Assembly: GCA_016186915.1 (NCBI GenBank)
Contig: JACPKU010000006.1
Span: 249,619-313,618 of the forward strand
DNA: 64,000 bases
Origin: Candidatus Doudnabacteria bacterium
GTDB lineage: Bacteria > Patescibacteriota > Doudnabacteria > UBA920 > O2-02-FULL-48-8
Direction: 5' to 3'
In this document: piece after piece, positions 1 through 49,635 of the stretch
Position numbering within the stretch: the first letter of the stretch is position 1
Layout: each line of letters opens with the position of its first letter
Notes under the pieces: generated by a model
Told to the model about the DNA's origin: nothing
The model's database searches: none
Seen by the model: only the letters and a program-made list of their open reading frames with translations
Program-made: the position numbers and the translations under genes

Positions 1-28
1 CATTCATACACGACTGTATGAATGTATT
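1..28. repeat. Palindromic repeat family A (CATTCATACA-CGAC-TGTATGAATG), solo copy at the alr stop codon
   Basis: Same sequence as 36753-36782, 37281-37310 and 49565-49596; truncated by the window start. Confidence 0.95.
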
Positions 29-1202
29 ATTTAACTAATACTCTTGGCACGGTGGGATTGATACGCGTGACAATCTCATAATTAATCGTGCCGGCGATTA
101 CGGCTAATTCATCCGCGAAAATTTCTTCACGGCCTTGTTTGCCTAAAAGCACGGCTTCACTCCCCGCTTTGGCATTTTTGACCTTGGTGACATCCGCGCT
201 TAATAAATTCATATAAACGCGCCCTCGCACTTTGCATCGTTTACCGTCGATCAACACTTCTGCCAAATTGGAAAATTTTCTGTCATAGCCCTCATAATAA
301 CCTACAGGCAAGATCGCTAATTTAGTCGGTTTGGGCGCTCTATAATTCCTGCCGTAACCAACTTACGCCCCTTTGGGAATTTCTTTGACTGCTAACACTT
401 TGGCTTTCCATGTCAATGCTGGCTGCAAATTAAATCCGGGATTGGCTTTCTGAATCAAGGAATGAATCGATTTATAAGATTGCAAGCCGTAAAGACCAAT
501 GCCGATTCTTACTAAATCGAAATGACTTTCAGGCACGGACAGCGCAGACGCGGTGCAAGCAATATGCTTAACCGGAATAAAAATCAAATTTTGTTCCAAG
601 GCTTCGATAATGCTTCGGAAATGATTGAGCTGAATGACCGTAAAAGCCGGATCGTCTTCCGAAGAAGCAAAATGACTAAATATACCTTCTATTTCCAGTT
701 GTGAAAATTTGCTGACCTGCTTCACAAATCCCACGGCGTCTTTCGCGTACACGCCCAAACGGGATAATCCCGTGCCGACTTTGATATGCACTTTGGCCTT
801 TTTCTTGAGCTTGCTGGCTGTTTCTGCAATCAACTTGGCCTGTTTGAGATCATAAACCACTAAGGCAATATGGCGCTCAATCAAAGACTTAACTTGATCT
901 GCCCTGTAGTAATTTAAAACCAAGATCGGCTTCTTAATCCCAAATTGTCGCAGCGTCAACGCTTCCGTGCCATTGGCCGTGCCGAACGAATCCACGTAAT
1001 CTTCCAAAGTCGAGCTAACTGCGAACGCGCCGTGGCCATAGGCATTGCTTTTCACCACTGCCATCAAAGAAACCCGCCCACTCTTGGTGGGCGAGGCTCG
1101 TCCCAACTTCGTTGGGGCGGCAATCAACACTTTCCGTAACTGCTTCGCGTTATGAATCAGCGCTGATTTAGAAATTTCAACCCAAGAGAGCGATGCATTC
1201 AT
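27..1202 (-). pseudogene. alr: Alanine racemase interrupted by an in-frame TAA at 363-365
   Basis: AVVKSNAYGHG PLP-lysine motif; ORFs 363..1202 and 27..311 share one frame, reading KEIPKGA*VGYGRNY...LPVGYYEGY; could be a sequencing error. Confidence 0.85.
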
Positions 1203-1608
1203 TTTTTAAAATTCCAGTTACAAGTTCGCAGTCAGCAGGAACCAATTCTTGAATATTTTTATGTCAATGATTCGAATGTTCAAAGTGTCGCAAGGCATCT
1301 TGTCTGTTCATCCCGTAAACAATTTTTCTGATTTTCTCCCACATCGCGGCTCCGGTACACATCATACAGGGCTCACAGGTGGAATATAGTATGCAGCCGG
1401 GTAAATGTTTGGTTCCTAAGACTTTACACGCTTCGCTGATCGCTTTAATTTCCGCATGTCTCGTGCCGTCCTGTTCTTCCTCAGTCGTGGAGTAGGCCTT
1501 GGCGACGACCTCACCATCTTTTACCACCACGGCGCCAAACTTTTTCGGTCCCTTACTTTTCTTTGCTTCCTCAATAGCCAGCTTCATGAACTCTTCATCG
1601 CGGGTCAT
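1177..1608 (-). pseudogene. Zn-dependent nucleoside/tRNA deaminase (TadA/guanine deaminase family) with an in-frame TGA at 1264-1266
   Basis: HAE and EPCMMC motifs; the frame continues past TGA as HKNIQELVPADCELVTGILKNECIALLG*, a typical family C-terminus. Confidence 0.75.
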
Positions 1609-1620
1609 ATCACTTGTCCG

Positions 1621-2928
1621 TTAAGATTTTTTAATCGTGTCAAATCCAATATATTCTTGCAACACTTTTGGCACTTTCACCGAACCGTCTTTTTGCTGGT
1701 TGTTTTCCATAATCGCCACAAGCGTTCTGGGCATTGCAATTGCGGTTGCGTCATTGGTGTGCACATACTCAGTGGTACCATCTTTTTTACGAAAACGAAT
1801 GTTTAGGCTTCGAGCCTGGTAATTCGTAACGTAATCAGCGCTGTGCGTCTCTCGATATCTTCCTTGCGATGGAATCCAGGTTTCCAAATCCATTTGTCTG
1901 GCATCAGGTTTGGCCATATCGCCCGTGCAATTCAAAACCACCTGATAAGCAAGGTCCAGGGACTGCATAATATACTCTTGAGTCGCGACTAAAAATAAAT
2001 GCTCATTCAAACCGTCCTCAGGCTTCGTAAACGACTCCATTTCAATCTTATCAAACTGATGCACCCGAATCATCCCTTTGGTGTCTTTACCGTATGATCC
2101 TGCTTCTCTGCGAAAGGCAGTGCTGATTGCCGCGTAGCGGATAGGCAAACTTTCTTCTTTCAAGGTCTCGTCCATATGCATAGGCACCAGAGTGTGTTCG
2201 GCGCTGCCGATCAAATACTTATCATCTGAATTGATATAAAACTTGTCCTCTTTGTCAGCCTCGGTCAATCGAGTGGTCCTTTTGTATACTTCTGGCTTAA
2301 TCATCACGGGCGGAAAAACAGGGATAAATGGTTTGGGGTTGACCTTCAGTTTGGCAGCACGAGCGATCTTCTCAAGCTCGGAACTGTTGGTCAAAATTTT
2401 AAAAACGTGGTGAGTTAGGGCCAGTTCAATTTGTGCCATGCCACCCTTCCAGTATCCAAACCTGGCTCCTGCTACCTTGCTGGCTCTCTCCATATCCAAA
2501 ACATTTAGGTCAGCGCCCAGCTGCAAGTGATCTTTGATCTCAAAATCAAAATTTTTGGGCTTGCCTACTTTTTTAACAACCTCATTTTCAGTTTCGTCTT
2601 TTCCCACAGGCACATCTGGAAGAGGCACATTCGGAACCTGTCGCATGGTTTCAAGCCATTGATCTTGAATCTCTTTCAATTCCAACTCAAACTTTGCTGA
2701 GCTTTCCTTTAGCTTTTTGCCCTCTTTCACGAGCTTATCGTCCTTGCCTTTTTTCAAGGTTTGGGCAATCTCGTTCCTGCGGGACCGGATAGCTTCTGTT
2801 TCAACAATCAGCTTACGCCGCTGATCGTCTAGACTGATCAGATGATCAAGATTAACATTTAATTGTTTGTCTTGAATGGCTTTTTTTACTACTTCTTGAT
2901 TGTCGCGGATGAATTTGATATCGAGCAT
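1621..2928 (-). CDS. serS: Seryl-tRNA synthetase
   Basis: MLDIKFIR N-terminus, FRREAGSYGKDT.G..RVHQF motif 2. Confidence 0.98.
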   Translation of the reverse strand: MLDIKFIRDNQEVVKKAIQDKQLNVNLDHLISLDDQRRKLIVETEAIRSRRNEIAQTLKKGKDDKLVKEGKKLKESSAKFELELKEIQDQWLETMRQVPNVPLPDVPVGKDETENEVVKKVGKPKNFDFEIKDHLQLGADLNVLDMERASKVAGARFGYWKGGMAQIELALTHHVFKILTNSSELEKIARAAKLKVNPKPFIPVFPPVMIKPEVYKRTTRLTEADKEDKFYINSDDKYLIGSAEHTLVPMHMDETLKEESLPIRYAAISTAFRREAGSYGKDTKGMIRVHQFDKIEMESFTKPEDGLNEHLFLVATQEYIMQSLDLAYQVVLNCTGDMAKPDARQMDLETWIPSQGRYRETHSADYVTNYQARSLNIRFRKKDGTTEYVHTNDATAIAMPRTLVAIMENNQQKDGSVKVPKVLQEYIGFDTIKKS

Positions 2929-2931
2929 AAT

Positions 2932-3528
2932 TTATTTTTTTGCTAATTCTCTTAACACGTCATGTAATTTTTCTAAGGCGTGTTTTCTGTGATCCAAAAC
3001 CCTTTCTTCTTCTTCATTAACTTCGCACCAATACTTATTATAATTCGGAAGGTATGTAACAGATCGATAAGGATAATGAGCCACGACTTTTTCGGAAGGT
3101 CTATCGGCGATTATTCCCTCAACCCCGCCTTGTGAAGTAAATATACCCAATGGAGTGGCCAGTGCAATGGTAATTGTAAATTTACAAGCCCGTCTATCAT
3201 CCGGAACGTCTTTCATTCGCTTCATGACCTCGCCAATAATTTCTTCGTCATTCATTTCATGTCCCAGCCACCGATGGCTTTTGATCCCTGGCTCACCGTT
3301 CAATGCTTCAATCTCCATACCACCGTCATCAACCAGGCTTGGGATCCCTGATTGCTTAAAATAATACTTCGCCTTGTTTACCGCTTCTTCTTCAAACGTG
3401 TCGCCTTTTTCTTCCGGTGGCTGAATATTCAGCTCTTTTGCAGAAACAACTTCCAAATCAAAATCTTTTAAAAGTTTTTGGTATGTGTTCACTTTTGCCG
3501 AATTCCCTGTGCCTATGAGAATCTTCAT
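2932..3528 (-). CDS. Non-canonical purine NTP pyrophosphatase (Ham1/RdgB family)
   Basis: GTGN..K, EE.G.TFEE.A..KA, DDGG..IEALNGEPG..S.RW, HR..AL motifs. Confidence 0.9.
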   Translation of the reverse strand: MKILIGTGNSAKVNTYQKLLKDFDLEVVSAKELNIQPPEEKGDTFEEEAVNKAKYYFKQSGIPSLVDDGGMEIEALNGEPGIKSHRWLGHEMNDEEIIGEVMKRMKDVPDDRRACKFTITIALATPLGIFTSQGGVEGIIADRPSEKVVAHYPYRSVTYLPNYNKYWCEVNEEEERVLDHRKHALEKLHDVLRELAKK

Positions 3529-4079
3529 AACCCAATTTCCTCTGCACTTTCTTTCATCGCGCCGAGCGAAATCTCGACGAGTTCAGGCAGTTCTAAATTA
3601 ATATAGTCTTTGCAAAGCAGGATAATCTCTCTTTTTACCCCGGCGGCGAAACTTTTCTGTTTGAATTTTTTGAGCACCGAATCCGCAGTTACTGATGCTA
3701 ATTTCTTATCCGGCTGTACCAGTGCTACTGCTGTGATCAGCCCTGACAACTCCTCCACACAATATAGGGTTTTTTCTAACAGCGTTTCTGGTTTAATTCC
3801 ATGATCCCAGTTGTGGACGTAAATTGCTTTAATTATTTCTGGCTTCAGATCAGTTTTTTCCAAAATCTCTTTGGTAACCTTAGTATGGTTGTTAAAATCA
3901 TCCTTGGTTTTCTCCCAATCCAAATCGTGCAATAGTCCGGCCAGTCCCCAATCATCCTTATTCCCTCCAAATTTGACGGCCAGCGCTTTCATCATGGCTT
4001 CCACCGCGATCCCGTGCCTGACGAGATTTATATTCTTTATATGTTCGTTTAAAAGATGTAAGGCTTCATTTCTGTTCAT
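3525..4079 (-). CDS. HD-domain phosphohydrolase
   Basis: H...GLLHDLDWE and KKFK.KSFAAGV.RE motifs. Confidence 0.88.
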   Translation of the reverse strand: MNRNEALHLLNEHIKNINLVRHGIAVEAMMKALAVKFGGNKDDWGLAGLLHDLDWEKTKDDFNNHTKVTKEILEKTDLKPEIIKAIYVHNWDHGIKPETLLEKTLYCVEELSGLITAVALVQPDKKLASVTADSVLKKFKQKSFAAGVKREIILLCKDYINLELPELVEISLGAMKESAEEIGL

Positions 4080-4146
4080 ATACTGTTCCTTTTGCTCCCA
4101 ATGGTCCCGTCTAAAAGCGGGAAATCGACCGAAAAAAGTATCCGAG

Positions 4147-5604
4147 CTACCCCTCTTTCATTGGCGGGAAAATTACAGTCTCGCGCATTGCCTTGTTCAT
4201 GAGCACCGCAAACAGCCGCTCGCTTACCCCGAATCCCACAGCTGGTGGCATGCCATATTCCAACGCCTCGACATAATCCTCATCCATCATTTGCGCTTCC
4301 TTGTCTCCTGCTTCGCGCAGTTTCATCTGCTGCTCAAACCTGGCTTTTTGATCCAGAGGATCGTTCAATTCGGAAAATCCATTGCCCAACTCAGTGCCTG
4401 CTGCCAGAGGTTGAAAACGCAAAACTTTGTTTGAACTCTTAGGGTCGCGTTTAGCCAAAGGCGTGGTTTCAATCGGGTGTCCGACTAAGAAACAAGGCTG
4501 AATCAATTTCGGCCGCACAACTTTTTTATAAATCGCATCAATCAACTTGCCCTTGCCAAGTTTGTCAATACCGCCGATTCCTAACTCTCTTGCCTTTTTA
4601 CGAAGATCACCTTCGTCATTTTTATCTAAATCTAAACCAGTATATTTCTTAAATACTGTAAAGTATTGAAGTTTTTGCCACTTGCCGCCCCAATTAATTT
4701 TCTGCCCTTCGTATTCGGTTTCCATACTACCAATCACAGCCATCACCACTTTTTTAAATAATTTCTCCACCAACTTCATGCCATCCTGATAATCAGCGTA
4801 AGCCCAGTAAAATTCCATGTCATCATATTCTTGCAAGTGTTCGCGATCAATACCTTCGTTGCGAAACAGCCTGCCGACTTCAAAAACTTTTTCGAAACCG
4901 CCAACCAGCAATCTTTTAAGCGGCAATTCCAAAGAAATGCGCAAATAAAAATCGCGATCCAATTTATTGTGATGCGTAACAAACGGCTCCGCGTCCGCGC
5001 CTCCAGGGATGTTTTCCAAAACAGGCGTCCAGACTTCCAAGAAGCCTTGCTTGATCATGAAATTTCGGATGGTTTGCCAAAACACGGCCTTCTTTCGAAA
5101 CAACTCTTTCGTTTCCGGATTAACTAATAAATCTAAATATCGTTTGCGCAGCCTGGTTTCCACATCCTTCAAGCCAAAAAAATCCGAAGGGATGGGACGG
5201 ATAGATTTAGTGAGTAGTTTGTAGTTTGTAGTGAGTAGAGACTTTTCTCCGGAATTGGACAAACCAAGCGTACCAGTTGCCTCCAAAAAATCACCGATAT
5301 CCAACAACGACAAATTTTTATACTGGTCCGCACCCAAACCGTCTTCCTTTAAAATCAACTGGATAGCCCCGCTTTCGTCTTCCAAATTTATGAAAGCCAA
5401 CTTGCCATGTTCGCGCAGCGCCCGAATGCGCCCGACTAATGTCACGTGATCCGTGTTACGTGATCCGTGATCAAAAAGTTCTAAGGCTTGTGCAATGGCG
5501 TGCGTTCGTTCAGTCTTAACCGGATAAGGATCAACCCCTTGTTTTTTTAGTTGTCCTAATTTTTGTATCCGAACTTTCCTAAGTTCTTCTATTTTTTCTG
5601 ACAT
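4147..5604 (-). CDS. lysS: Lysyl-tRNA synthetase (class II)
   Basis: YLRISLELPLKRLLVGG, FRNEGID, ALEYGMPP motifs. Confidence 0.98.
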   Translation of the reverse strand: MSEKIEELRKVRIQKLGQLKKQGVDPYPVKTERTHAIAQALELFDHGSRNTDHVTLVGRIRALREHGKLAFINLEDESGAIQLILKEDGLGADQYKNLSLLDIGDFLEATGTLGLSNSGEKSLLTTNYKLLTKSIRPIPSDFFGLKDVETRLRKRYLDLLVNPETKELFRKKAVFWQTIRNFMIKQGFLEVWTPVLENIPGGADAEPFVTHHNKLDRDFYLRISLELPLKRLLVGGFEKVFEVGRLFRNEGIDREHLQEYDDMEFYWAYADYQDGMKLVEKLFKKVVMAVIGSMETEYEGQKINWGGKWQKLQYFTVFKKYTGLDLDKNDEGDLRKKARELGIGGIDKLGKGKLIDAIYKKVVRPKLIQPCFLVGHPIETTPLAKRDPKSSNKVLRFQPLAAGTELGNGFSELNDPLDQKARFEQQMKLREAGDKEAQMMDEDYVEALEYGMPPAVGFGVSERLFAVLMNKAMRETVIFPPMKEG

Positions 5605-5740
5605 AATTCCTGATGCATATTACTTGGCTTTAATTATACCATAAATCTTCAGTATCACCAAAAAAACGAGATAATATTAATATAAAAGATAATAATATGT
5701 GGCGCTATTGATGTTGATGTTAGTTGATGTTATTTTAGAA

Positions 5741-5768
5741 TACAATTATCCCGATCGGGATTTTTATA
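5741..5768. repeat. Palindromic direct repeat B, downstream copy (TACAATTATCCCGATCGGGATTTTTATA)
   Basis: Identical 28-bp copy at 6356-6383; perfect 14-bp core palindrome ATCCCGATCGGGAT. Confidence 0.95.
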
Positions 5769-5774
5769 ATCGGA

Positions 5775-6353
5775 CTAAACCTTTCTGAGGTTAAATTTTT
5801 CTAATAAATCCTTTTGAATATCAATGTTTTCAGCTATAATCATTCTGACAAATGATCTGACTTCATAAATCTCCTTTAAGAAATCGAGCTCGTCTTCGCA
5901 GGGATAAGGGTACACCCAAACACTCTTTTGAATGGAGGTGAATCCAAGTTCTTTCAGCTTACCTCTAAAAAATTTTCTTGCTGCGCTAAATTTCTCTGGA
6001 ACGTCAAAAATAACCACCCTCCACTTACCATCCCATCGCCTTGGCTTACTTATCACCATTTCATCTAAATTATAACTTAAAAGTCTTTGATGACCATTTT
6101 TTGTTACCTCAACTATTGTTTTTCCCGCATGATTGGACACAGAGATCAGATTCTGCTTTTCAAGATTTCGGAAAGATTGTTCAATTTGCCGGCGATTATA
6201 TTTCTTGAGTCTCTGAAATTCAAATTTACCTAAGCCAAGTTCTTCTGAAAAAATCATTACGCCTAAGGGGCCAGCAACCGGAATAGCTAACATCCCGGCC
6301 GTTGCCACTATTTTTAATATCGTCTTGGCGATTTCTGACCTTTTGGCCTTCAT
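5775..6353 (-). CDS. PaaX-like regulator: winged helix plus Cas2-like ferredoxin-fold C-terminal domain
   Basis: WDGKWRVVIFDVPE...R.KLKELGF..IQKSVWVYPY motif; paralog of 13662..14228. Confidence 0.85.
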   Translation of the reverse strand: MKAKRSEIAKTILKIVATAGMLAIPVAGPLGVMIFSEELGLGKFEFQRLKKYNRRQIEQSFRNLEKQNLISVSNHAGKTIVEVTKNGHQRLLSYNLDEMVISKPRRWDGKWRVVIFDVPEKFSAARKFFRGKLKELGFTSIQKSVWVYPYPCEDELDFLKEIYEVRSFVRMIIAENIDIQKDLLEKFNLRKV

Positions 6354-6355
6354 AT

Positions 6356-6383
6356 TACAATTATCCCGATCGGGATTTTTATA
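6356..6383. repeat. Palindromic direct repeat B, upstream copy, 2 bp before the ATG
   Basis: Identical to 5741-5768. Confidence 0.95.
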
Positions 6384-6436
6384 TTATAGATCGCTGTACA
6401 AGCGATCTATAAATCTATAATTTTTTTAAATTCTTT

Positions 6437-6898: not shown

Positions 6899-6953
6899 AA
6901 ATATAAACCTTTTTAAAAACCCCTGATCAACGTGGGATTTTTAATGTGCAGCA

Positions 6954-13614: not shown

Positions 13615-13648
13615 TTGATCTTTTCACGCGATCGCTGAAAAAGGTCAA
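13615..13648. repeat. Palindromic repeat B2, downstream copy (TTGATCTTTTCACGCGATCGCTGAAAAAGGTCAA)
   Basis: 27/34 identical to 14280-14313; GCGATCGC core. Confidence 0.85.
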
Positions 13649-14279: not shown

Positions 14280-14313
14280 TTGATCATTTACTGCGATCGC
14301 TTAAAATAGTCAA
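14280..14313. repeat. Palindromic repeat B2, upstream copy (TTGATCATTTACTGCGATCGCTTAAAATAGTCAA)
   Basis: Homologous to 13615-13648. Confidence 0.85.
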
Positions 14314-23044: not shown

Positions 23045-23073
23045 TTGAAACTCCTCTTGTTTTAGCCTAAAAT
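23045..23073 (+). promoter_or_regulatory. sigma70-like promoter TTGAAA-17-TAAAAT
   Basis: Lies between elements C3 and C2, upstream of the PEGA gene. Confidence 0.55.
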
Positions 23074-23083
23074 AAGAGGGAAG

Positions 23084-24446: not shown

Positions 24447-24476
24447 ACGTAAAATGCGCGGCCGCGCATTTTACGT
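24447..24476. repeat. Perfect 30-bp palindrome between convergent genes
   Basis: ACGTAAAATGCGCGG|CCGCGCATTTTACGT. Confidence 0.9.
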
Positions 24477-24898: not shown

Positions 24899-26684
24899 TC
24901 AGATCGATAATTTTTAATTGCAGCTCTTTGTGGCCGTTCCATTCATTACTTTCCAATTCAAACACCGCGTCGAAAGTCTTGTTTGAATTTAGTATATCAG
25001 TTAAAAATCCTTTCCCAAAAGCAATCGCATTAAATTCTTGCCCATCCAGACTGCAGCGCAGTTTCAGATGTTGATTGTCACTGCCGACTTGCCGCGCTTC
25101 AAGCAACTTAAAATTTTTAGCCAAAAACCGAGGCTTGGGATTGCCAACCCCGAACGGCCCGAATTTAGCTAAATATCCATAAATGTCCCAAGTTAAATCC
25201 TGCGCCGCAACTTCACTATCAATATTGATTTCATACGGCTCAGGCGTGTAGCCCGCTACTTCCGCATACTCTAAAAGCTTCTGATAAAACGCCTCAATGT
25301 TTTTACTCTCCAAAGCGAACCCGGCTGCTTGCGCGTGTCCGCCGTATTTTTGCAGCAAATTCTGACAATAATTCAGGGCTTGCACCATATCATAATCATT
25401 TACCGAACGCGCTGATCCGGTCGCCTTCTCTCCGTCTTTTTCTATCACCAGACTCGGCCGATTATACTCCTCTGTAAGTTTGCCCGCCACCAAACCCACC
25501 ACACCTTTCGGCCAATTATCTGAAGCTACCAACAAAATCTTTTTATCAAGCTTGGTTTCTACTTGCGATTTGGCTTCGCTTAAAATCTGTTGTGTGAGGG
25601 TTTGCCGATGTGAATTTAACTCGTCCAATTCTTTCGCTAGCTGTTTGGCTTCGTTATCGTCTTCGGCAACCAACAGTTGAAAAGCAAGGTTGCCATGCTT
25701 GATTCTGCCCGCCGCGTTGATCCTCGGAGCCAATAAAAACCCCAGGGTATAAGTATCAAAGGGTCTTGATTGAGCATCTAATCCAGCAACTTGGATCAAT
25801 GCCTGCAAACCCAGCCAGCGAGTTTTGTTTAAGACCTGCAAACCGAAATGCACCAGCAGGCGATTCTCAGAAGTGAGCGGCTGTAAATCAGCCACCGTGC
25901 CGATAGCCACCAGATCCAATAGCCACTTTTCCCAACCCACGAGAACGCCCTTTGTTAATAACTCCCCCTCTCCCCCTCTTACTCTAAGAGGGGGTTCCTC
26001 TGCAGTTTCGTCCCCCCTTGGAACAAGGGGGGAATGGGGGGGGTTAGATGTCGAAGAGTTTAGATTTCTAAAAAGTGCCTGGACTAACTTATACGCCACC
26101 CCCGCGCCAGTTAAGTACGGAAAGGGATAATTGTCTTGCCTATTTTTAGGGTTTAACAGCGCCAACGCTTCAGGTAATCCGTCCGTAATCTCGTGGTGGT
26201 CGGTAATAATCATATCCACCCCCAACTCTTGAGCCAGCCTGGCTTCTTCCACTGCATTGGTGCCGCAATCAACGGTAATGATTAATTTATTGCCCTCGCT
26301 GGCTAGCTTTTTGATTGCCTCAATGTTCAATCCGTATCCTTCGCTGAATCTGTCAGGAATGTAATAATTCGCCCTCACGCCCAATTTTTTTAAACCCAAA
26401 TAAACCACGGCGCAGGCAGTGATCGCGTCAGCGTCATAATCGGCATAAATGCAGATTGGTTCCTGTTTTTCCACTGCGCCTTGGATCCGGGCCACCGCCT
26501 TTTTCATGTCAGAAAACAAAAAAGGATCCGACAAATTAGCATAATCAGGATTGAAAAAATTCTTAATCTCCCGAGGCTCGGTCATCCCTCGATTGGCCAG
26601 CAGGCGCAAAATCAAAGCCGGATACTCCGGCAATTTTGGGATCAAACTCTCCTCGATTTGTTTCAACTGCCATTTCTTTTGCAT
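24885..26684 (-). CDS. recJ: ssDNA exonuclease RecJ with an in-frame palindromic insertion
   Basis: DYDADA, TVDCG, TDHH, APRINAAGR, GGH..AAG. Confidence 0.97.
   Translation of the reverse strand: MQKKWQLKQIEESLIPKLPEYPALILRLLANRGMTEPREIKNFFNPDYANLSDPFLFSDMKKAVARIQGAVEKQEPICIYADYDADAITACAVVYLGLKKLGVRANYYIPDRFSEGYGLNIEAIKKLASEGNKLIITVDCGTNAVEEARLAQELGVDMIITDHHEITDGLPEALALLNPKNRQDNYPFPYLTGAGVAYKLVQALFRNLNSSTSNPPHSPLVPRGDETAEEPPLRVRGGEGELLTKGVLVGWEKWLLDLVAIGTVADLQPLTSENRLLVHFGLQVLNKTRWLGLQALIQVAGLDAQSRPFDTYTLGFLLAPRINAAGRIKHGNLAFQLLVAEDDNEAKQLAKELDELNSHRQTLTQQILSEAKSQVETKLDKKILLVASDNWPKGVVGLVAGKLTEEYNRPSLVIEKDGEKATGSARSVNDYDMVQALNYCQNLLQKYGGHAQAAGFALESKNIEAFYQKLLEYAEVAGYTPEPYEINIDSEVAAQDLTWDIYGYLAKFGPFGVGNPKPRFLAKNFKLLEARQVGSDNQHLKLRCSLDGQEFNAIAFGKGFLTDILNSNKTFDAVFELESNEWNGHKELQLKIIDLNATQ
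25959..26046. repeat. Double-hairpin REP-like element translated within RecJ
   Basis: CCCCCTCTTA-CTC-TAAGAGGGGG and TCCCCCCTTG-GAA-CAAGGGGGGA; encodes NPPHSPLVPRGDETAEEPPLRVRGGEGEL. Confidence 0.85.
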
Positions 26685-35453: not shown

Positions 35454-35483
35454 CCCTGAGCGGAGCGAAACGGAGTCGAAGGG
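35454..35483. repeat. REP-like repeat D abutting the GIY-YIG stop (CCCTGAGC...GTCGAAGGG)
   Basis: Inverted relative to 35758-35776; near-identical reverse complement at 47991-48020. Confidence 0.85.
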
Positions 35484-35750
35484 TTATTCCCATTTACCCC
35501 ACTCGCCAGTGATTAATTTTTTTTTCTTCTTTCTCGTCCAACCTTTTAATTGTTTTTCACGTAAACTTGCCTCTTCAAAACTTTCATATTCTTCTAAATA
35601 AACTAGTCGCTTTGGTTTGTGCTGTTTTGTATATTCTCCCCCTAAACCAGATATATGCTGGATCCATCTCTGATCAGGCTTCCAAGTTCTGCCAACATAA
35701 TAAGACTTGTCTTCGCATTCTATTATATACACATACCATTTCCACTTCAT
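35484..35750 (-). CDS. Small GIY-YIG nuclease (UPF0213/YhbQ-like)
   Basis: YVYII.C.D.SYYVG.T, R..QH..G, YT....P..LVY.E, REKQLKGW.R.KK. Confidence 0.92.
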   Translation of the reverse strand: MKWKWYVYIIECEDKSYYVGRTWKPDQRWIQHISGLGGEYTKQHKPKRLVYLEEYESFEEASLREKQLKGWTRKKKKKLITGEWGKWE

Positions 35751-35757
35751 ACGAAAT

Positions 35758-35776
35758 GCCTTCGACAAGCTCAGGC
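35758..35776. repeat. REP-like repeat D upstream of the GIY-YIG ATG (GCCTTCGACAAGCTCAGGC)
   Basis: 7 bp upstream of the ATG at 35750. Confidence 0.85.
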
Positions 35777-35777
35777 A

Positions 35778-35987
35778 TCAAAAGCTAAATCCTGCTCTCA
35801 TCACCTCCCAAAAACTTGGCAAATTAGTGGATTGCCCAGTCTGCTTGCATACTGCGTAAGCAATGTGATAGTTACACTCCAGATTGGTGTTCTCGGTTAT
35901 TGCCTTGATCCCACGCCAATAGAAAAAGATAAAAGCGATCAGCAGAAGCCAAATCAACCTTGTTCGATTTTTTTTACGTAGAAGCAT
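35778..35987 (-). CDS. Small single-TM hypothetical protein
   Basis: ATG start, TM helix, two Cys; fills the gap between neighbours. Confidence 0.6.
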   Translation of the reverse strand: MLLRKKNRTRLIWLLLIAFIFFYWRGIKAITENTNLECNYHIAYAVCKQTGQSTNLPSFWEVMRAGFSF

Positions 35988-36752: not shown

Positions 36753-36782
36753 CACATTCATACACGACTGTATGAATGTATT
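36753..36782. repeat. Palindromic repeat A, downstream of the TrpR-like gene
   Basis: CACATTCATACACGACTGTATGAATGTATT, identical to 37281-37310. Confidence 0.97.
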
Positions 36783-37272
36783 AACCTTCTAAGGTTCTTT
36801 TTGCAGAACGTTGTTTCAGTTTCTTTCTGATAAAACGGTTTGCCGCTGGAACTCCTTCGGTGACTAAATTTGCCAAAAATGTTTCGGCCGGAGCTTTTCG
36901 GCGCACCCTTCTTTCTAAAATTGCTTGTCTTTCTTCGCGCTTCCCTTGGTATTTATGTTCCAGATCTTGTAACTTAGAGTGTACCTTTCTCAATCCATCG
37001 CCATGAATCACGAGAATATTACTGACATTATTAATAGTTCTGGAAGTAACCCTCAAAGCATTTATTATTTCTTCATAGGTTTGACCTTGAAGTAGTCGTC
37101 GCGCAATTTCTAATCTTTTAGCGAACATTTTGTATTCCGTATGTGTAAACAAATCTTTAAACAGCAACCTGATATCCTCCTTAGAATCCATCAGAGTAAA
37201 TGCGGCCCATAAATTGTTCACATAGTGACCAAAATGCTCGGGATCTAAATGTAGTCTTGAAAGTTTTGTCAT
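36781..37272 (-). CDS. TrpR/YerC-YecD-like HTH protein
   Basis: LFKDLFT.TE..M.AKRLEIARRLLQGQTYEEI...L.VTS.TI..VS; probable start MTKLSR at 37272. Confidence 0.88.
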   Translation of the reverse strand: MTKLSRLHLDPEHFGHYVNNLWAAFTLMDSKEDIRLLFKDLFTHTEYKMFAKRLEIARRLLQGQTYEEIINALRVTSRTINNVSNILVIHGDGLRKVHSKLQDLEHKYQGKREERQAILERRVRRKAPAETFLANLVTEGVPAANRFIRKKLKQRSAKRTLEG

Positions 37273-42589: not shown

Positions 42590-42605
42590 AGCCTCTCTTC
42601 TCCCG

Positions 42606-42656: not shown

Positions 42657-42660
42657 TGGT

Positions 42661-43437: not shown

Positions 43438-43439
43438 AA

Positions 43440-44438
43440 CTAAGGCTGTCTTAACGTGTCCGCGGCTACTTCGGGGGTTATAGTATTCACATACACATCC
43501 GAGCCAAGCTCAAACCCTCCCCAAACTTTTAATCTCGGCAAAACCTCCAAGTGCCAATGATAGCTATCATAGCTATAGCGCGTAAGTAAATTGTGGCTGA
43601 CTGGCATGGTGTGAATGTAATAATTGTAAGCGGGATTGCCCAGTTTGTAATAAAGCTTTTGCAGGACGTATTTCAAAACCAGGGCCAGGGAGTGGCGTTC
43701 TTGGGTGGAAATTTCCATAAAACTTGCGCGGTGGGTTTTGGAAATGATTCGAAGCGCATACGGCACGCGCGAGGCGAAAGGCGCGAACACCAAAAAATCT
43801 TTGTGATCCAGCACAATTCTGTCTTTATGTTCCAATTCTTTGAGTATAGTCTCGCAGTAAACACAAGCGCCATGATCCTGATAAAATAAATAACTGCCTG
43901 TAACTTCTTGATGCAGATGCTCAGGCACAAACGGCGTGGCAAAGATCTGCGAGTGAGGATGGATCAAGGTGGCGCCGGCATCGCGGCCATGATTTTGCAC
44001 CACGTGCACGTACTGGATTTCCGGATGCTGGGAAAGTTCGCGCATCCTTTCTTGATATACCCTCAGGTTCAGATCCATCAAATCATCCGGCAAAAAAGCC
44101 GTCATAATATTGTGCTGGCGCGTGACCAAAACCTCGTGGTCTCCTATTCCTTCGCGGACAACATAAAAATCCGACCGGCTGCGGCCACCTCTGTGTCCCA
44201 AGGCTTCGAATTTGTTGGGAATCACCCTGACCTTCCAATCCTTGCCTTTGGGATACGAGGCAATCTCCTGATTATATCCCTCATTTCCCGGACAAAAAAC
44301 GCAAGTCTTTTCCACGGCGGGCAGGGTTTTGGGATCAGGAGTAGCCGGTGGGGTTTTAAAATCTTCCGGCCGGCCTTCGCGGTTAGGCGCAAACAACACC
44401 CACTGCTTGGAAACTATATCTTGTCGAAATTCACTCAT
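43440..44438 (-). CDS. galT: Galactose-1-phosphate uridylyltransferase family (HIT)
   Basis: C.FCPGNE, NHG..AGATL.HPHSQ, HWHLE..PRL. Confidence 0.9.
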   Translation of the reverse strand: MSEFRQDIVSKQWVLFAPNREGRPEDFKTPPATPDPKTLPAVEKTCVFCPGNEGYNQEIASYPKGKDWKVRVIPNKFEALGHRGGRSRSDFYVVREGIGDHEVLVTRQHNIMTAFLPDDLMDLNLRVYQERMRELSQHPEIQYVHVVQNHGRDAGATLIHPHSQIFATPFVPEHLHQEVTGSYLFYQDHGACVYCETILKELEHKDRIVLDHKDFLVFAPFASRVPYALRIISKTHRASFMEISTQERHSLALVLKYVLQKLYYKLGNPAYNYYIHTMPVSHNLLTRYSYDSYHWHLEVLPRLKVWGGFELGSDVYVNTITPEVAADTLRQP

Positions 44439-44967
44439 TAATAAATTTTACCGTGCTGATAATGTCGTCGATTATTGAGCTTGTGCCGCGAATCACAAAC
44501 AGCCGGCTATCCGGCCTTACCAGCACAACAATTTCTTCCTGGCCAGTGCTTAGTTGATTGACAATCCTTGGCCCGTCTATGCCGCCAATTGGCACTCGCA
44601 CTTCGCTGACATTATCCAAGGCCGCGCGGATAGCTGTTTCGTCGCTCGCCCGCTGAACAGACACGCTTACCTGCTCATTGGCGATACTGTCTGACTCAAA
44701 CAAGATGATGTTATCAGCTGGAGATTCCAATACCCAGTCATTGGGGTAGCGCAAAGAAAAACCCAAGTTCTTGCTTTGGTATGTGCGCCAGGCATTGACC
44801 TCATTGAGATTACCCACCACTTCGCGATCAAAATTCTCATTAGTAACCACGATATAGCCGACTAATCCGATGGCAATAAACACTGCAATCGACAAGGTCC
44901 AAATCAGCCATCGGTGCGGGCTCAAGCTGTGGGTTTTCTTTTTTCGACTGGTTGTTTGTTTTGGCAT
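44431..44967 (-). CDS. Membrane-anchored PsbP-like-domain protein
   Basis: TM then WRTYQSKNLGFSLRYPNDW...IISTVKF. Confidence 0.75.
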   Translation of the reverse strand: MPKQTTSRKKKTHSLSPHRWLIWTLSIAVFIAIGLVGYIVVTNENFDREVVGNLNEVNAWRTYQSKNLGFSLRYPNDWVLESPADNIILFESDSIANEQVSVSVQRASDETAIRAALDNVSEVRVPIGGIDGPRIVNQLSTGQEEIVVLVRPDSRLFVIRGTSSIIDDIISTVKFINE

Positions 44968-44995
44968 ATTTTTTTAGTTTTAAATTTGATGTACG

Positions 44996-45403
44996 CTAGC
45001 CTGCTCGATAGTCGAGATACGCCTGCAGGATGATTTGCGCCGCGATGTTGTCTTTAATCTCCTTTTGTTTCTTTTCACTTAAGCCTTGCTGGTCCAATAA
45101 TTTTCCGGCCTCGATGGTAGTAAATCTTTCATCCAAATATTCAAGAGGAATTTTTAATTTTTTTTTCAGCTGTGAAAAAAATTTGTCCACTTTGCTTGCC
45201 GATTCAGCTTCTTCGCCAGCGAGATTCAAGGGCTTACCAATGACTATTTTCTCAATTTTTAATCTGTCAACCAACTTTACGATTTGATCAACCGCCTTTT
45301 TGTTATCCAAAATCTTTTCAAAAGGGAAAGCGATTCTGCCTTCCTCGTCCGAGATCGCGGCTCCTATTCTGACTTCCCCCCAATCCAAAGCCATGATGCG
45401 CAT
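44996..45403 (-). CDS. yqgF: YqgF/RuvX pre-16S rRNA nuclease
   Basis: ALDWGEVRIG.AISD, DERFTT, D..AA..ILQ.YLD. Confidence 0.95.
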   Translation of the reverse strand: MRIMALDWGEVRIGAAISDEEGRIAFPFEKILDNKKAVDQIVKLVDRLKIEKIVIGKPLNLAGEEAESASKVDKFFSQLKKKLKIPLEYLDERFTTIEAGKLLDQQGLSEKKQKEIKDNIAAQIILQAYLDYRAG

Positions 45404-45409
45404 AAGAAT

Positions 45410-46651
45410 TTATTTCGTTTCGCCCAAAATCACGGTTATTTCTTTTTCTTCTCCTTCGGACAAAACCCTCATCTTGACTGTGTCTCCGGGATCAAAATTT
45501 TTCAAAGCGCCCGCGAGACTGTGATCGCGATCGATCCGCTGAGAACTGACCTGTAAAATTATGTCTCCTTCTTTCAAACCGGCCTTATCCGCCGCCGAAC
45601 CCTCCACCACAGCCGCTGCCCCGGCACCGCCCACAATCAACGCCCCATAATCCACTTTCAAGTCGTTTTCCTTCTGGATCGTTTCATTGACCAAAACATA
45701 TCTCACGCCCAAAAACGGCTTAACAATTCGGCCAAATTTTTCAAAGCTTTCAATGTCCTTCTTTATATCCTCGGAAGGAATCGCAAAGCCGATTAGCTGG
45801 CCTTGAGAATCAATGGCAGTGTTTATGCCAATCACCGAGCCGCCGATGTCTAAAAGCGGTCCGCCGGAATTTCCCGGATTAATGGCGGCGTCGGTCTGCA
45901 CTACTCCTTCTAACTGTTCGGAGCCGCCGTGGCCAGAGGCGGTAATGGTTCGCCCAATCCCCGAAACCACGCCGGTGGTTACGGTATTTCTGTGGCCCAG
46001 GGAATTGCCAATCGCAATTACTTTTTGTCCGATTTCAAGGTCAGTGGAATCGCCCAGTGGAATGGTCGGCAAATCCTTGGCTTCGATTTTTACCAATGCC
46101 AAATCATTAACCGGGTCAATCGATAAGACCTTTGCGTCAAAACTTTTCCCGTCATTAGTCAGCACCGTGTAGCTGGCAGCAGAATCGATGACCACGTGCT
46201 TGTTGGTGACAATCAGACCGTCACTGGTAACAATAAATCCGCTTCCGCCGCCGACCACTTGGACGTTCGGCTCGCTTTGCTCACCGGGATTCCGGAATTG
46301 AAAGAAGGGATCAAAGCTAAACGGGCCGAGATCAAACGGTGAAGAGCTAAATCCCGGTACCTTGTTCAAGTCCTTGGAAATGATGATGGAAACCACTGCC
46401 GGAGCGGCTCTTTTCACCACGTCCACCACTGCTGATTGCTCGTTGACCTGAACAAAATTCACCCCTCCAGAATTGACGTTGTCCAATCCCCGCTTCTGGT
46501 AAAAAGGGACAATGTAAAAGGAAGCGAAAACTGACCCAGCCACGCCGAATAAGAAACTGATCAAAATTACTGCAGGAATTAGCCTGCTTTCAGTTTTTTT
46601 TGGTGTCTTGGAAGGTAAATCCGAGGTTAAACTGGTATTTTTCGACAGCAT
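45410..46651 (-). CDS. htrA: HtrA/DegP-family serine protease with a PDZ domain
   Basis: GSGFIV, TNKHVV, QTDAAINPGNSGGPL. Confidence 0.95.
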   Translation of the reverse strand: MLSKNTSLTSDLPSKTPKKTESRLIPAVILISFLFGVAGSVFASFYIVPFYQKRGLDNVNSGGVNFVQVNEQSAVVDVVKRAAPAVVSIIISKDLNKVPGFSSSPFDLGPFSFDPFFQFRNPGEQSEPNVQVVGGGSGFIVTSDGLIVTNKHVVIDSAASYTVLTNDGKSFDAKVLSIDPVNDLALVKIEAKDLPTIPLGDSTDLEIGQKVIAIGNSLGHRNTVTTGVVSGIGRTITASGHGGSEQLEGVVQTDAAINPGNSGGPLLDIGGSVIGINTAIDSQGQLIGFAIPSEDIKKDIESFEKFGRIVKPFLGVRYVLVNETIQKENDLKVDYGALIVGGAGAAAVVEGSAADKAGLKEGDIILQVSSQRIDRDHSLAGALKNFDPGDTVKMRVLSEGEEKEITVILGETK

Positions 46652-46684
46652 ATGGTAATTTATTATAACAAACTTATTAAATAT

Positions 46685-47455
46685 TTACAATTTAGCTTTG
46701 GTGAGGACCTCAAAACCGGTTTTTGTCACCAGTATAGTGTGCTCAAAATGCGCGGCTGGCTGGCCATCATAAGTTGTCACGGTCCAACCGTCTTGGGAAA
46801 ATTTGATCCTGGGATCTTTCATGTTCAGCATGGGCTCAACAGCCAAAACCATGCCCTCTCTAAGCTCCAGGCCTTCGCCTCGTTTGCCGAAACACGGAAC
46901 TTCCGGCTCTTCCCAGACTGATCTGCCCACTCCATGCCCGACTAGCTCTCGAACCACGACAAATCCCGCGTCTATGGCGGTTTTCTCGATAGCATAACCA
47001 ATGTCCCCGATGTGGTTTCCTGATTTTATCTGATTTAAACCATTTGCCAAGCTGTGCTTGGCCGCCGCGATTAAATCCAGCAACTTCGAATTCACTTGTC
47101 CGATGGGCACAGTAATCGCCGCATCAGTAAAAAAGCCTTGATAATTCACTCCTAAATCCAGACCAACTACATCGCCAGCTCTTAAAATTTTGTCTTTGTG
47201 CGGAATACCGTGCACCACCTCTTCGTTGATCGATACGCACAGAGAAGCGGGAAACGGCCTCTCCTGCGGATTCGACTGGTGCCCCTTGAATGCCGGCTTG
47301 CCGCCGCGGGCCAGAATCTCTGACTCCGCTAAACGATCGAGCTCTTCAGCCGAAATCCCAGGGACGGCTTTCTCGGCCACCAACGCCAAAACTTCAGCGA
47401 GCATCTGCCCGCTTCTTCTTAGCTTTTCAATCTCTTTTGGATCGCTGATAACCAT
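46685..47455 (-). CDS. map: Methionine aminopeptidase type I
   Basis: S.NEEVVHGIP, GHGVG, EPM, AHFEHT. Confidence 0.97.
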   Translation of the reverse strand: MVISDPKEIEKLRRSGQMLAEVLALVAEKAVPGISAEELDRLAESEILARGGKPAFKGHQSNPQERPFPASLCVSINEEVVHGIPHKDKILRAGDVVGLDLGVNYQGFFTDAAITVPIGQVNSKLLDLIAAAKHSLANGLNQIKSGNHIGDIGYAIEKTAIDAGFVVVRELVGHGVGRSVWEEPEVPCFGKRGEGLELREGMVLAVEPMLNMKDPRIKFSQDGWTVTTYDGQPAAHFEHTILVTKTGFEVLTKAKL

Positions 47456-47987
47456 TTATTGCTTTCTGAATATCCAAAGATACCTTCTTAATGCTTTGAT
47501 TGCCGTTAATGAGTCTTAATTTCTTTAAGCCTTGATAGTATTTAACCGTTCTACTAACCTCTTTGTTATAATAAGCAATTCTACTCTTTATCAACCTTAC
47601 ATCAACATCTTCCAATCTCGCGGCACGGAGTTTAGAACGCTTGATGATTTCTCTCTTTGGAATTTTTATATAAATCGCAAAAAAATTCCTATGTCTTTTC
47701 TTAAGTTGCCTTACCAAATATTCTGCTTCGTGCCTGAGCCTAGCGGCCCCGACAAATATGATATTGCCTCGCTTTAAATCCTTCAAATAGTGGTTCAGGA
47801 ACGGGATAATTAAATTAGTCGGGGCTGGAACGCCATGCCGATATTTATAGCCTTTTAAATTTCGAAGATATTCACCGGAGCGGGCAAGTTTAACCTTGTA
47901 TTTCTTTGCCAACAATAAGGCCTGGGTATCTTTTCCAGAGGTAGAGTCTCCTAATAAAATTAAATCAAAACCCAATCTTTTTTTCAT
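47427..47987 (-). CDS. Divergent adenylate/NMP kinase paralog
   Basis: GDSTSGKDTQA P-loop variant; VGAAR in place of DGFPR; INGNQSI..V. Confidence 0.75.
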   Translation of the reverse strand: MKKRLGFDLILLGDSTSGKDTQALLLAKKYKVKLARSGEYLRNLKGYKYRHGVPAPTNLIIPFLNHYLKDLKRGNIIFVGAARLRHEAEYLVRQLKKRHRNFFAIYIKIPKREIIKRSKLRAARLEDVDVRLIKSRIAYYNKEVSRTVKYYQGLKKLRLINGNQSIKKVSLDIQKAINGYQRSKRD

Positions 47988-47990
47988 AAA

Positions 47991-48071
47991 GCCTTCGACT
48001 CCGCTTCGCTTCGCTCAGGCAAAAAAATAATCCCTGAGCTTGCCTGCCTCGCCGGCAAGCGGGTCGAAGCG
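47991..48071. repeat. Back-to-back pair of repeat D units between the two adk-like genes
   Basis: GCCTTCGAC...GCTCAGGC, spacer, CCCTGAGC...GTCGAAGC; the second unit carries a nested CCTGCC...GGCA palindrome. Confidence 0.85.
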
Positions 48072-48665
48072 TCATTTATTTATTCCTAATTTCTCTAATA
48101 TCTCCTGGTGCACTGCTTCGATCGGCTGATCGCCATTGATGATTATTAGTTTACCGTTTTTTTGATAATAGTCTTTTACAGGAGCGGTTTTTTTCTGATA
48201 CTCATCAAATCGGGTCATTATTATCTTTGGATCGTCGTCTGCTCTTCGTCCATGAGCGCCTTCTCCTTCTATCCGCTTGGACAAACGTTTATGTAATTGA
48301 TCTCGGTCAACATTCAAAAACAAAACCACGATATCCATAACCGTATATTTACTCATCAACTCATTCAGAAGCTCAACTTGATCCAAAGTCCTTGGATATC
48401 CATCCAGAATCAAACCTTCTTCAGAGGTTAAGCTCTCTAACTTTTTGACAAAAATTTGTCGGATTATATCAATGGGTAAAATAACACCTTTATCGACAAT
48501 TACTTTAATCTCTCGACCCAAGCGATTGTCTTGTTTGGCATACTCTCTCGATAATTCTCCTGTGCTAAAATAGCCAAACCCCAAAACTTTGCTCAAAAGT
48601 TTACTCTGAGTACCTTTACCGCTGCCGGGCGCCCCCATTAATAAGATTATCTTTTTTAACTTCAT
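48072..48665 (-). CDS. adk: Adenylate kinase (short LID)
   Basis: GAPGSGKGTQ, STGEL.R, LDGYPRT..Q, R.DD. Confidence 0.93.
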   Translation of the reverse strand: MKLKKIILLMGAPGSGKGTQSKLLSKVLGFGYFSTGELSREYAKQDNRLGREIKVIVDKGVILPIDIIRQIFVKKLESLTSEEGLILDGYPRTLDQVELLNELMSKYTVMDIVVLFLNVDRDQLHKRLSKRIEGEGAHGRRADDDPKIIMTRFDEYQKKTAPVKDYYQKNGKLIIINGDQPIEAVHQEILEKLGINK

Positions 48666-49042
48666 TTTTTTTCCAACATTAAACATGCAGAATTAATGCA
48701 ATATCGTTTGCCGCCTCGCTCCTGCGGGCCGTCGTCAAACACATGGCCCAAATGCGAGCCACAGTTTTTGCAAACCACTTCAGTGCGACGCACGCCATGA
48801 TCATTATCTTCCCGAAGCTCCACATGCTCCAGGTTGGCCGGTTCAGTAAAAGACGGCCAACCAGTACCGGAATCAAACTTGGCGTCAGAAGAAAACAATT
48901 CCTGTCCGCAAGCAGCGCATTTGTACATCCCCTTATCTTTGGTGTTTACATACTTGCCTGAAAACGGCGCTTCTGTGCCTTTCTTGCGCATTATATGATA
49001 CTGTTCAGGGGTCAATTTTTCCTTCAATTCCTCATCTGTCAT
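48662..49042 (-). CDS. msrB: Methionine-R-sulfoxide reductase
   Basis: KGTE.PF, KFDSGTGWPSF, HLGHVF.DGP, RYCINS. Confidence 0.97.
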   Translation of the reverse strand: MTDEELKEKLTPEQYHIMRKKGTEAPFSGKYVNTKDKGMYKCAACGQELFSSDAKFDSGTGWPSFTEPANLEHVELREDNDHGVRRTEVVCKNCGSHLGHVFDDGPQERGGKRYCINSACLMLEKK

Positions 49043-49175
49043 ACTCGCATTATATCAAAAAACACCTTTGTTTCCAAAGATGCTCACGTATAAACATTGA
49101 CAATTAAACCGTTTCAACCTATGCTGGTGGCGAAGTAATTCCGCTTCTCCAAACAACCCTTAGGAGGATCTGATC

Positions 49176-49397
49176 ATGGGCAAGGGAAGATTTGCGGAAG
49201 AGATCGAGCACAAGCCGTCATCGCCCGGCCAAGAAATGGTGGATCTCGTGCTCACCTGCGGCATCTCGGCCCTCGCCGGATCTCAGGATACGGTCGAATG
49301 CCGCATCACGGACCACGAGCTTGGCAAGACCTACACCGGCACGGGGAGCACGGAGTCCGAGGCCCGCGATGACGCGCTCGGCAAACTGAATCGCTGA
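49176..49397 (+). CDS. 73-aa orphan protein with its own promoter, SD and terminator
   Basis: TTGACA-17-TATGCT (49097-49125), AGGAGG SD, hairpin GAGTGAG/CTCACTC plus T-tract. Confidence 0.75.
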   Translation: MGKGRFAEEIEHKPSSPGQEMVDLVLTCGISALAGSQDTVECRITDHELGKTYTGTGSTESEARDDALGKLNR

Positions 49398-49464
49398 CCG
49401 ACGGGTGGTCTTCGGCGGTGAGTGAGGTTCTGACAAAGAATCTCACTCATTTTTTTTAAAATAT

Positions 49465-49635
49465 ATCTCCTTACAACCCCCAGCGAGGGTTTTGGTTTAC
49501 CCGCCGGACTTTCGGGTGCCGATCATTCGACCGGACAAGTGTCTCGAAACGAGACTCGGACTTACATACATTCATACACGACTGTATGAATGTATGGCAA
49601 ATCCCAACCCCCATATTTGCAGGCAACACAAGCAA
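49465..49635 (-). ncRNA. Putative structured RNA containing repeat A as an internal hairpin
   Basis: TTGACA-17-TATTGT (49670-49642); closing stem GGGGGUU..UUUGCC/GGUAAA..AACCCUC; inner hairpins. Confidence 0.4.
49565..49596. repeat. Palindromic repeat A, solo copy with 14-bp perfect arms
   Basis: CATACATTCATACA-CGAC-TGTATGAATGTATG. Confidence 0.97.

Follow-up and report, generated by a model that had tools for sequence, protein, structure and literature searches.

Here we describe, in a 64,000-nucleotide stretch of the genome of a Candidatus Doudnabacteria bacterium (the window; G000:C4:249619-313618), small PaaX-like and TrpR-like regulator genes that each lie between two copies of a palindrome of their own, while such palindromes also occur without a gene elsewhere in the genome. 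We believe that these site-gene-site units are slowly mobile, non-autonomous, autorepressed selfish elements whose sites are moved or copied in trans by host recombination, a reading to which we give a probability of roughly 0.55. The source genome (G000) is that of an ultra-small bacterium of the candidate phyla radiation (CPR), 728 kb in size and 97% complete; in our comparisons G numbers denote genomes, L numbers fetched loci and C numbers contigs of G000. Window genes that were profile-checked take their names from Pfam, and CYTH, thyA, ychF, valS, recJ, Sua5, cysS, lepA, tagA, prmC, ligA, purF, purN, recR, rplA, ddl and DUF296 are what we take the respective genes to be from recognisable sequence and not from a library search.

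An initial annotation had placed four small genes in the window between flanking repeats, and these genes and repeats were all confirmed. The fourth unit, built around a GIY-YIG gene, is treated separately below; the three regulator units are laid out as follows.

36781-37272, minus strand: TrpR-like gene, 163 aa, TrpR/YerC fold, PF01371 (E 1.4e-9)
36753-36782: 3' site of the TrpR-like unit, an 11+6+11 palindrome that overlaps the stop codon
37281-37310: 5' site of the TrpR-like unit, the same 30-mer as at the 3' end, which overlaps an extended -10-like box (TG-TACAAT)
5775-6353, minus strand: PaaX-like gene 1, 192 aa, between greA and lysS, PF20803 (E 8e-22)
5741-5768: 3' site of PaaX-like gene 1, a 28-mer with a CGATCG core
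6356-6383: 5' site of PaaX-like gene 1, identical to the 3' 28-mer, ending 2 nt before the ATG
6384-6412: extra palindrome that abuts the 5' site of PaaX-like gene 1, single copy in the genome
13662-14228, minus strand: PaaX-like gene 2, 188 aa, between rseP and proS, PF20803 (E 4.7e-23)
13615-13648: 3' site of PaaX-like gene 2, a 34-mer
14280-14313: 5' site of PaaX-like gene 2, a 34-mer identical to the 3' site at 27/34 positions (7 differences)

The extra palindrome at 6384-6412 could be the remnant of a different site class.

First, the layout recurs across the genome and among relatives. In G000 there are nine PaaX_M genes, five TrpR-like genes, two DUF559 genes and, for GIY-YIG, 11 small matches and a long protein. 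A gene-specific palindrome brackets eight of the nine PaaX-like genes (5'/3' pair scores 16.5-39), the ninth having a weaker pair that is visible after start correction, and of the five TrpR-like genes three have a pair, which is lacking at C6:1295 and at the short YerC-like gene. An unbiased scan for palindromic direct pairs (at least 21/26 identical) found 13 at spacings of 200-1200 bp, against 3 at 2.2-3.2 kb and 0 at 4.2-5.2 kb, so that the repeats are indeed beyond chance; it also revealed the same layout around an ArsR-like and a DUF559 gene. Every unit gene of G000 has a private site, and the palindrome is thus specific to the gene and not, as the initial annotation had it, to the family. 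The unit genes are AT-rich (GC 0.36-0.39 vs 0.44-0.49). Among homologs, whose flanks had been predicted to carry paired palindromes, 30 PaaX-like loci were fetched out of 72 listed matches (three being G000's own), and 27 of the 30 have a pair scoring at least 15, whereas control flanks score 7-11 at 29 of 30 loci and the remaining one holds a third site copy. Likewise, 26 of 30 fetched TrpR-like loci passed re-alignment, and 24 of these (two being G000's own) have paired sites scoring at least 16, against 6-12.5 in control flanks. These 24 units occupy about 19 different junctions, and 22 of the pairs are in direct orientation, with inverted pairs at L015 and L059. At purF-purN (L059, L065), one unit at one junction differs between two genomes in the orientation of its sites, inverted in one case and direct in the other. 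The ArsR-like gene at G000:C4:324301-324657 has bracketing palindromes that differ in core, and two lone copies of its sites each follow one end, one of them in frame in a 2339-aa protein; at G000:C5:17819-20183, three TrpR_b-type sites stand about 1170 bp apart among small variable genes, the outer two diverged. An Rfam search of the window gave no match.

Second, the proteins resemble regulators whose recognition residues follow their sites. The TrpR-like protein belongs to the TrpR family by profile (PF01371, 38.3 bits vs a cut-off of 27), and its predicted model agrees (pLDDT 83.5), showing a TrpR/YerC fold with two extra long C-terminal helices; a fold search with this model matched 3frw (TM 0.86 on target, E 1.4e-3). 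PaaX-like gene 1 encodes a predicted winged helix plus a Cas2-like PaaX_M domain. Both window PaaX-like proteins match PaaX_M only and miss the cut-offs of PaaX TIGR02277 (29.2 and 30.7 vs 264.55 bits) and Cas2 TIGR01573 (18.8 and 23.0 vs 24.5 bits), and true PaaX and CRISPR Cas2 identities were rejected. A PaaX-like structure model (pLDDT 48, from a 4-row alignment) was not used, and a PDB sequence search returned nothing significant. In TrpR-like proteins, the first three residues of the recognition helix (S/A-R-T, x-H-T, E-R-T or E-K-P) track the arm class of the site; 35 of 36 pairs agree, compared with a mean of 3.8 after shuffling, though the agreement is inflated because the proteins are related and not independent, with classes set by eye. 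The TAC-N6-GTA skeleton of the sites has 21 matches in G000 at the 6-nt spacer against 0-3 at other lengths, and 87 against 0-1 in the fetched loci, whose selection had centred on such sites. Judged from these sequence relations, each unit protein very probably binds its own flanking palindrome as a dimer.

The same features would suit ordinary autoregulated repressors with an auxiliary 3' looping operator, in which lone sites are selected regulon operators and the genes move by general horizontal transfer. The overlap of the 5' TrpR site with the extended -10-like box and the covariation of helix residues with site arms both favour this reading, as does the behaviour of PaaX and HisR, which control their own expression and have palindromic sites (PMC9493321 and PMC9413887, each in part), yet we consider it unlikely as a full account given the distribution of lone sites set out below. 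Autorepression itself, raised as an alternative in the initial annotation, is not exclusive of mobility, and the 5' site probably mediates it; a promoter/terminator scan as a whole was at chance level (4 vs 5.0). The symmetry of the TrpR-type sites invites another comparison. The chromosomal dif site is 28 bp long with an 11+6+11 geometry, which among the sites studied here is found in the TrpR-type alone, and the sites could be dif-like substrates of host Xer, arranged as pdif-like modules in which the small proteins confer specificity or act as accessory factors. The fixed 6-nt spacer, the predominance of direct pairs and the presence in G000 of one full-length tyrosine recombinase would agree with this. 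However, arms that vary by class leave little for one Xer to read, two of the pairs are inverted and the PaaX sites have another geometry, and we regard an Xer-based system as very improbable.

Third, orthologous junctions are found filled, with a lone site, or empty, and we are highly confident that the units are gained, lost and moved horizontally, as had been surmised. At the dehydrogenase-gene junction the TrpR-like unit is present in G000 and G012, while G007, G018, G003 and G017 have neither the unit nor a site within 7 mismatches, so that four of six same-family loci with downstream sequence are empty of any site (G019 ends too early). Behind greA, one of 30 loci has the PaaX-like unit and site and 29 are empty. 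The rseP-proS junction, counted in 24 loci after one truncated locus and one paralog were left out, is filled in five, holds a lone PaaX-type palindrome in two, is tight and empty in six and has other inserts in 11; two PaaX clades only 28% identical fill this one spot, and one of the lone sites comes from the same genus as a filled genome and has the same core. At the DUF296 junction, G001 has a TrpR-like unit, G006 a site-gene-site-unit arrangement and G000 a lone site of that class, which is absent from all five resident TrpR-like units. The fba junction was spanned by just two orthologs, tight and empty in G018 and occupied in G017 by another small gene (L032), presumably GxxExxY-like. One copy may therefore remain where relatives hold a full unit (rseP-proS, DUF296), in agreement with the initial annotation; its further proposal, insertion at or duplication of an existing site, does not fit, since the empty orthologous junctions lack a site, which therefore was not an ancestral host target. 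An insertion sequence (IS) with target duplication was rejected for the units. No pre-existing att site or duplicated target was seen at empty loci (duplications of a few bases are beyond resolution, the relatives being distant), nor a transposase or recombinase of their own between the unit ends. Movement is also suggested by the class-1 TrpR-like 26-mer, which flanks units in identical form at three unrelated junctions (behind the 2-hydroxyacid dehydrogenase gene, ligA and purF) and is present in 3 of 41 genomes, the cognate gene in all three; one class-1 carrier is from another family, its protein 56% identical and its site identical. Records that share the window's repeat are labelled Ca. 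Doudnabacteria, Patescibacteria group and uncultured Saccharibacteria. Beside some units, passenger genes are themselves bracketed by sites (L136, L190, L203, L063/L064), and units may therefore carry neighbouring genes. From a reading of the sequences, different genomes of the family have two types of prolyl-tRNA synthetase behind rseP (L207-L232).

Fourth, the sites occur on their own. The gene-less copies named in the initial annotation are present, with borders refined to 1-25, 49568-49593 and 47991-48071, but its list was incomplete, lacking 24447-24476, the recJ insert at 25935-26084, 23053-23079 and 6384-6412. Those outside the nuclease-linked repeats and the PaaX-like 1 flank are given here.

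1-25: lone class-1 TrpR-like site, 1 nt behind the alr stop and before ddl; the window edge clips its first base
49568-49593: lone class-1 TrpR-like site; at the orthologous position G017 has a class-2b site in register with it
24447-24476: orphan PaaX-type palindrome, perfect, between convergent genes, with a second copy at C2:56698
23053-23079: lone element

The palindrome at 24447-24476 fits none of the nine resident cassette sites. For alr-ddl, two of 16 other ddl loci are close orthologs, and a tRNA-like sequence, not alr, precedes both; a TAA codon at 363-365 interrupts, in frame and about midway, the otherwise continuous reading frame of the alanine racemase gene (27-1202), either through mutation or through assembly error.

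G000 as a whole holds 29 lone copies from 13 classes, against 0 in the reversed genome. By crude gene calls, with two in-frame calls doubtful, 17 lie between tandem genes, six between convergent and one between divergent genes, and five inside called frames; the convergent excess, against background counts of 86 and 85, is merely suggestive (p ~0.06). Half of the intergenic copies (12/24) are at most 5 nt from a stop or overlap it. Class-1 lone sites are spread over more than 20 unrelated loci, few of which recur between genomes (rplA twice), and exact class-1 matches in 15 genome and 18 metagenome stretches adjoin unrelated genes; a single common regulon was rejected on account of these unrelated neighbours. 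Where the two ends of a unit differ, many lone copies follow one of them (1 vs 6, 2 vs 7, 1 vs 7 and 2 vs 8 mismatches), and an asymmetric spacer is exact in seven of eight class-1 copies of G000 and recurs in 36 of 38 copies wider afield, a figure biased by exact-match retrieval. Moreover, sites of two classes abut end to end, and G041-G043 contain exact class-1 sites but yielded no class-1 gene to the query used (genome completeness not given). Scattered placement scarcely common to any two genomes, the lean towards convergent junctions, retained end-specific quirks, stacking of classes and sites apart from a detected gene all speak against selected regulon operators, whereas the symmetric lone sites described below could be high-affinity operators. 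Since 26-34 near-invariant bases with shared quirks recur at dozens of unrelated places, copying explains the sites better than separate operator evolution does, and we think it likely, from the site sequences, that lone sites were copied as blocks.

Lone copies are more than the scars of loss that they had been taken for, as many of them lie in frame inside housekeeping genes. Among 20 CYTH orthologs, a first stretch of codons carries a class-1 site in G000, a class-2 site in G009 and an exact copy of the 3' site of its own cassette in G017, with no change in length, and 17 orthologs have no site; the three carriers group together (SH-aLRT 84, weak), so that one origin with later retuning is likely. 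The G000 copy has a single mismatch, at a conserved Arg codon, a preserved codon that the regulator reading can claim for itself. A second CYTH stretch has sites in G000 and G017 and a weaker one in G012, and places Thr where 17 of 17 site-less orthologs keep Leu/Ile, which speaks against that reading, as do mid-gene copies in general. The Sua5 loop contains three different palindromes in three genomes. The ychF loop has 20-21 residues in 15 of 22 orthologs, and six of the seven longer ones contain a palindromic element (gain of +2 to +11 aa), the copies of G000 and G006 resembling resident unit sites (5 and 4 mismatches of 34); in five genomes (L150, L152, L154, L160, L166) the ychF loop is built of seven-base tandem repeats. 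In tagA there is a clean in-frame gain of 27 nt (+9 aa), and the copies in cysS and a glycosyltransferase gene cause no length change, each of the three being compared with a single G000 ortholog. The same stretch of codons can hold a different site class from genome to genome, and two such sites reproduce the site of the resident cassette exactly or nearly so.

The nuclease-linked repeats of the window differ from these sites, and the initial annotation's single layout for all four genes does not extend to the GIY-YIG unit, whose repeats are inverted with weak hairpins and whose lone copies are doublets.

35484-35750, minus strand: GIY-YIG gene, 88 aa, single-domain, directly before fba, PF01541 (E 1.8e-19)
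~35454-35485: 3' repeat of the GIY-YIG unit, imperfect, facing inward
~35756-35779: 5' repeat of the GIY-YIG unit, imperfect, facing inward
47991-48071: gene-less GIY-YIG repeat doublet, 3'-type then 5'-type, one long predicted hairpin of -22.6 kcal/mol (DNA parameters)
25935-26084, minus strand: recJ loop insert, an in-frame double hairpin of the DUF559-associated repeat, 50 codons vs 9-11 in two orthologs

A paralog of the GIY-YIG gene at C3:3310 is 76% identical and has the same ends. No homolog in 24 family genomes exceeds 46% identity, those that are 71-76% identical carry the labels Buchananbacteria, Sungbacteria, Liptonbacteria and Microgenomates, and a plasmid collection held no GIY-YIG match at E 1e-12. 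The recJ loop has different palindromic inserts in G012 and G017 and none in G009 and G007.

Such resident nucleases raise the possibility that the palindrome itself is mobile and spreads, REP-like, as a single-strand hairpin through a GIY-YIG, DUF559 or Cas2-like domain, the regulator gene merely hitch-hiking. In Cas2/VapD-like proteins the Asp that ends the first strand has a nuclease role, and it is kept in 36 of 36 aligned PaaX-like proteins; the 11 small GIY-YIG and two DUF559 genes, the clean tagA insertion, the acceptance of PaaX-type sites and nuclease-linked hairpins alike by the ychF and recJ loops, and the passenger genes between sites (L136, L190, L203) all point the same way. However, no tag is common to all site classes, the window PaaX sites form weak structures when single-stranded (-1.7 to -6.0 kcal/mol), arm sequence tracks the TrpR-like helix and not a nuclease, the class-1 26-mer goes with its cognate gene in all three carrier genomes, and overwriting without an indel is atypical of cut-and-paste hairpins. 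We therefore consider this account quite unlikely.

For mobile, autorepressed units we propose the following course. The protein bound at the 5' site, which overlaps the promoter, would repress the unit gene. Recombination between the two direct copies would free the gene with one site and leave one site behind. The freed piece, or just a site, would then enter another site or look-alike DNA by recombination; such re-entry would create new units and overwrite an older site class in place. Sites would also insert into tolerant loops and just behind stops, where selection lets copies remain. Bound protein would promote copying by holding two sites together or by stalling forks, the weakest step of the scheme. 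Host site-to-site recombination as the specific route seems to us plausible at somewhat less than even odds. More tentatively, CPR bacteria might have a class of selfish elements in which a transcription-factor fold alone binds its private operator, pairs this with look-alike DNA and drives host repair to write it into new places, even into codons of essential genes; as part of the same tentative idea, such operator populations would multiply, displace one another and take the gene with them, with no encoded nuclease or recombinase.

Several observations weigh against this proposal. The TrpR-like protein has no catalytic domain in its model or in the fold search, and an enzyme for movement was not found: the absence of transposases and integrases from the window claimed in the initial annotation holds for Y1 transposases (PF01797 has no match anywhere in G000) and tyrosine recombinases (PF00589 has two matches in G000, one full-length and one a fragment, both outside the window), with DDE and serine families not searched, and the full-length tyrosine recombinase was not linked to unit sites. 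Several lone sites are perfectly symmetric or intermediate and are copies of neither end. The CYTH mismatch spares the Arg codon while flanking bases match, so that base-by-base selection for binding fits as well as conversion does. Some units stay at one junction across genera (L001/L002; L021/L023/L024; L059/L065), from which it follows that mobility is slow, and the relatives compared are other genera, with junctions not resolved to the base. The one-repeat joint that excision should leave, which the initial annotation had hoped to see in reads, was not found for the TrpR-like gene among the listed joints of four contig sets (assembled contigs, in which rare forms are dropped). The contig joint at 35501-35758 (25-letter side) can most probably be traced to repeat doublets at other places, and in a further contig 36779 is connected to 37288 via 25 other letters. 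Finally, viral contigs held 0 copies of the 26-mer and no confirmed TrpR-like relative, and a phage collection gave no PaaX-like match; with the plasmid search also negative, no vector was found.

The layout yields, from sequence alone, a protein together with its likely 28-40-bp target and a visible helix-to-site code. It thereby offers a large set of putative orthogonal repressor-operator pairs and a first practical handle on CPR regulators. If sites are indeed copied as blocks, long operators can arise or be rewritten in one step, even inside genes, which bears on the origin of regulons and on the spread of short palindromes where no transposase is known. The layout also calls for caution with CPR genomes, in which many genes annotated as 'Cas2' or 'YerC', and many apparent regulons, may represent selfish units.

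Some traits of the units are shared with known systems. Rickettsia palindromic elements are palindromes of about 100-150 bp that lie in frame in protein genes and are not known to have a cognate gene. They resemble the in-frame inserts seen here, which differ in being 28-40 bp long and traceable to the ends of a specific gene unit. HisR (YerC) and TrpR share with the TrpR-like units a fold, a palindromic site and likely autoregulation, and HisR, for the most part present once per genome, has 20-bp sites upstream of his genes (PMC9413887, in part). In contrast, the units reach seven matches per genome, have near-invariant 28-bp sites on both sides of the gene and no shared regulon, and their protein bears a 65-residue helical tail; a HisR identity was rejected, as the protein scores 37.6 bits against a TIGR02531 (HisR/YerC) cut-off of 42.2, G000 has five TrpR-like genes and the sites lie at unrelated genes. 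PaaX, which in E. coli binds a 39-bp symmetric site and represses itself, has a winged helix, a dimerisation domain and a long symmetric site in common with the PaaX-like units (34-40 bp) (PMC9493321, in part). The PaaX-like proteins differ in being about 190 aa long with no C-terminal ligand domain matched, in having no paa genes adjoining and in forming nine paralogs with nine sites in G000. As in REP/REPIN-RAYT systems, a gene is flanked by cognate palindromes with dispersed copies, and the GIY-linked lone copies (47991-48071) are inverted hairpin doublets (PMC3116915, in part). However, G000 has no Y1/HUH match (PF01797), on which ground RAYT/REPIN membership was rejected, the window unit proteins match other families, and TrpR/PaaX sites are singlets with 0-7 copies per class, often in frame in genes.

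The closest parallel concerns the NTS-ssnA-NTS arrangement of Ssn (cd10448) single-strand GIY-YIG nucleases, a small gene between its own repeats whose authors point to its IS-like layout (PMC11893778, in part). By analogy, we take the GIY-YIG unit to be a variant of this layout with a different repeat: the protein is single-domain and below 150 aa (88 aa, PF01541 only), its own repeat stands on both sides and gene-less copies occur elsewhere in the genome, and the nuclease likely nicks its own single-stranded hairpins as in Ssn/NTS. Its repeats do not fit the NTS consensus as judged by eye, the degenerate SRM pattern not being applied, and an NTS-like unit is found elsewhere in G000 (C4:73156). 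Grouping the GIY-YIG unit with the others, as the initial annotation did, overstates its novelty because a repeat-GIY-YIG-repeat plan is published, in a paper whose main text, supplements aside, makes no mention of CPR, Patescibacteria or DUF559 (PMC11893778). The PaaX-like and TrpR-like proteins differ from Ssn in being regulator folds with double-strand-type operators in direct orientation, and our literature searches, outside subscription journals and supplements, returned no description of their layout. The gene-between-repeats plan is thus known for nucleases, and what is new is its use by regulator folds, together with the three states of the junctions and the swapping of sites in frame.

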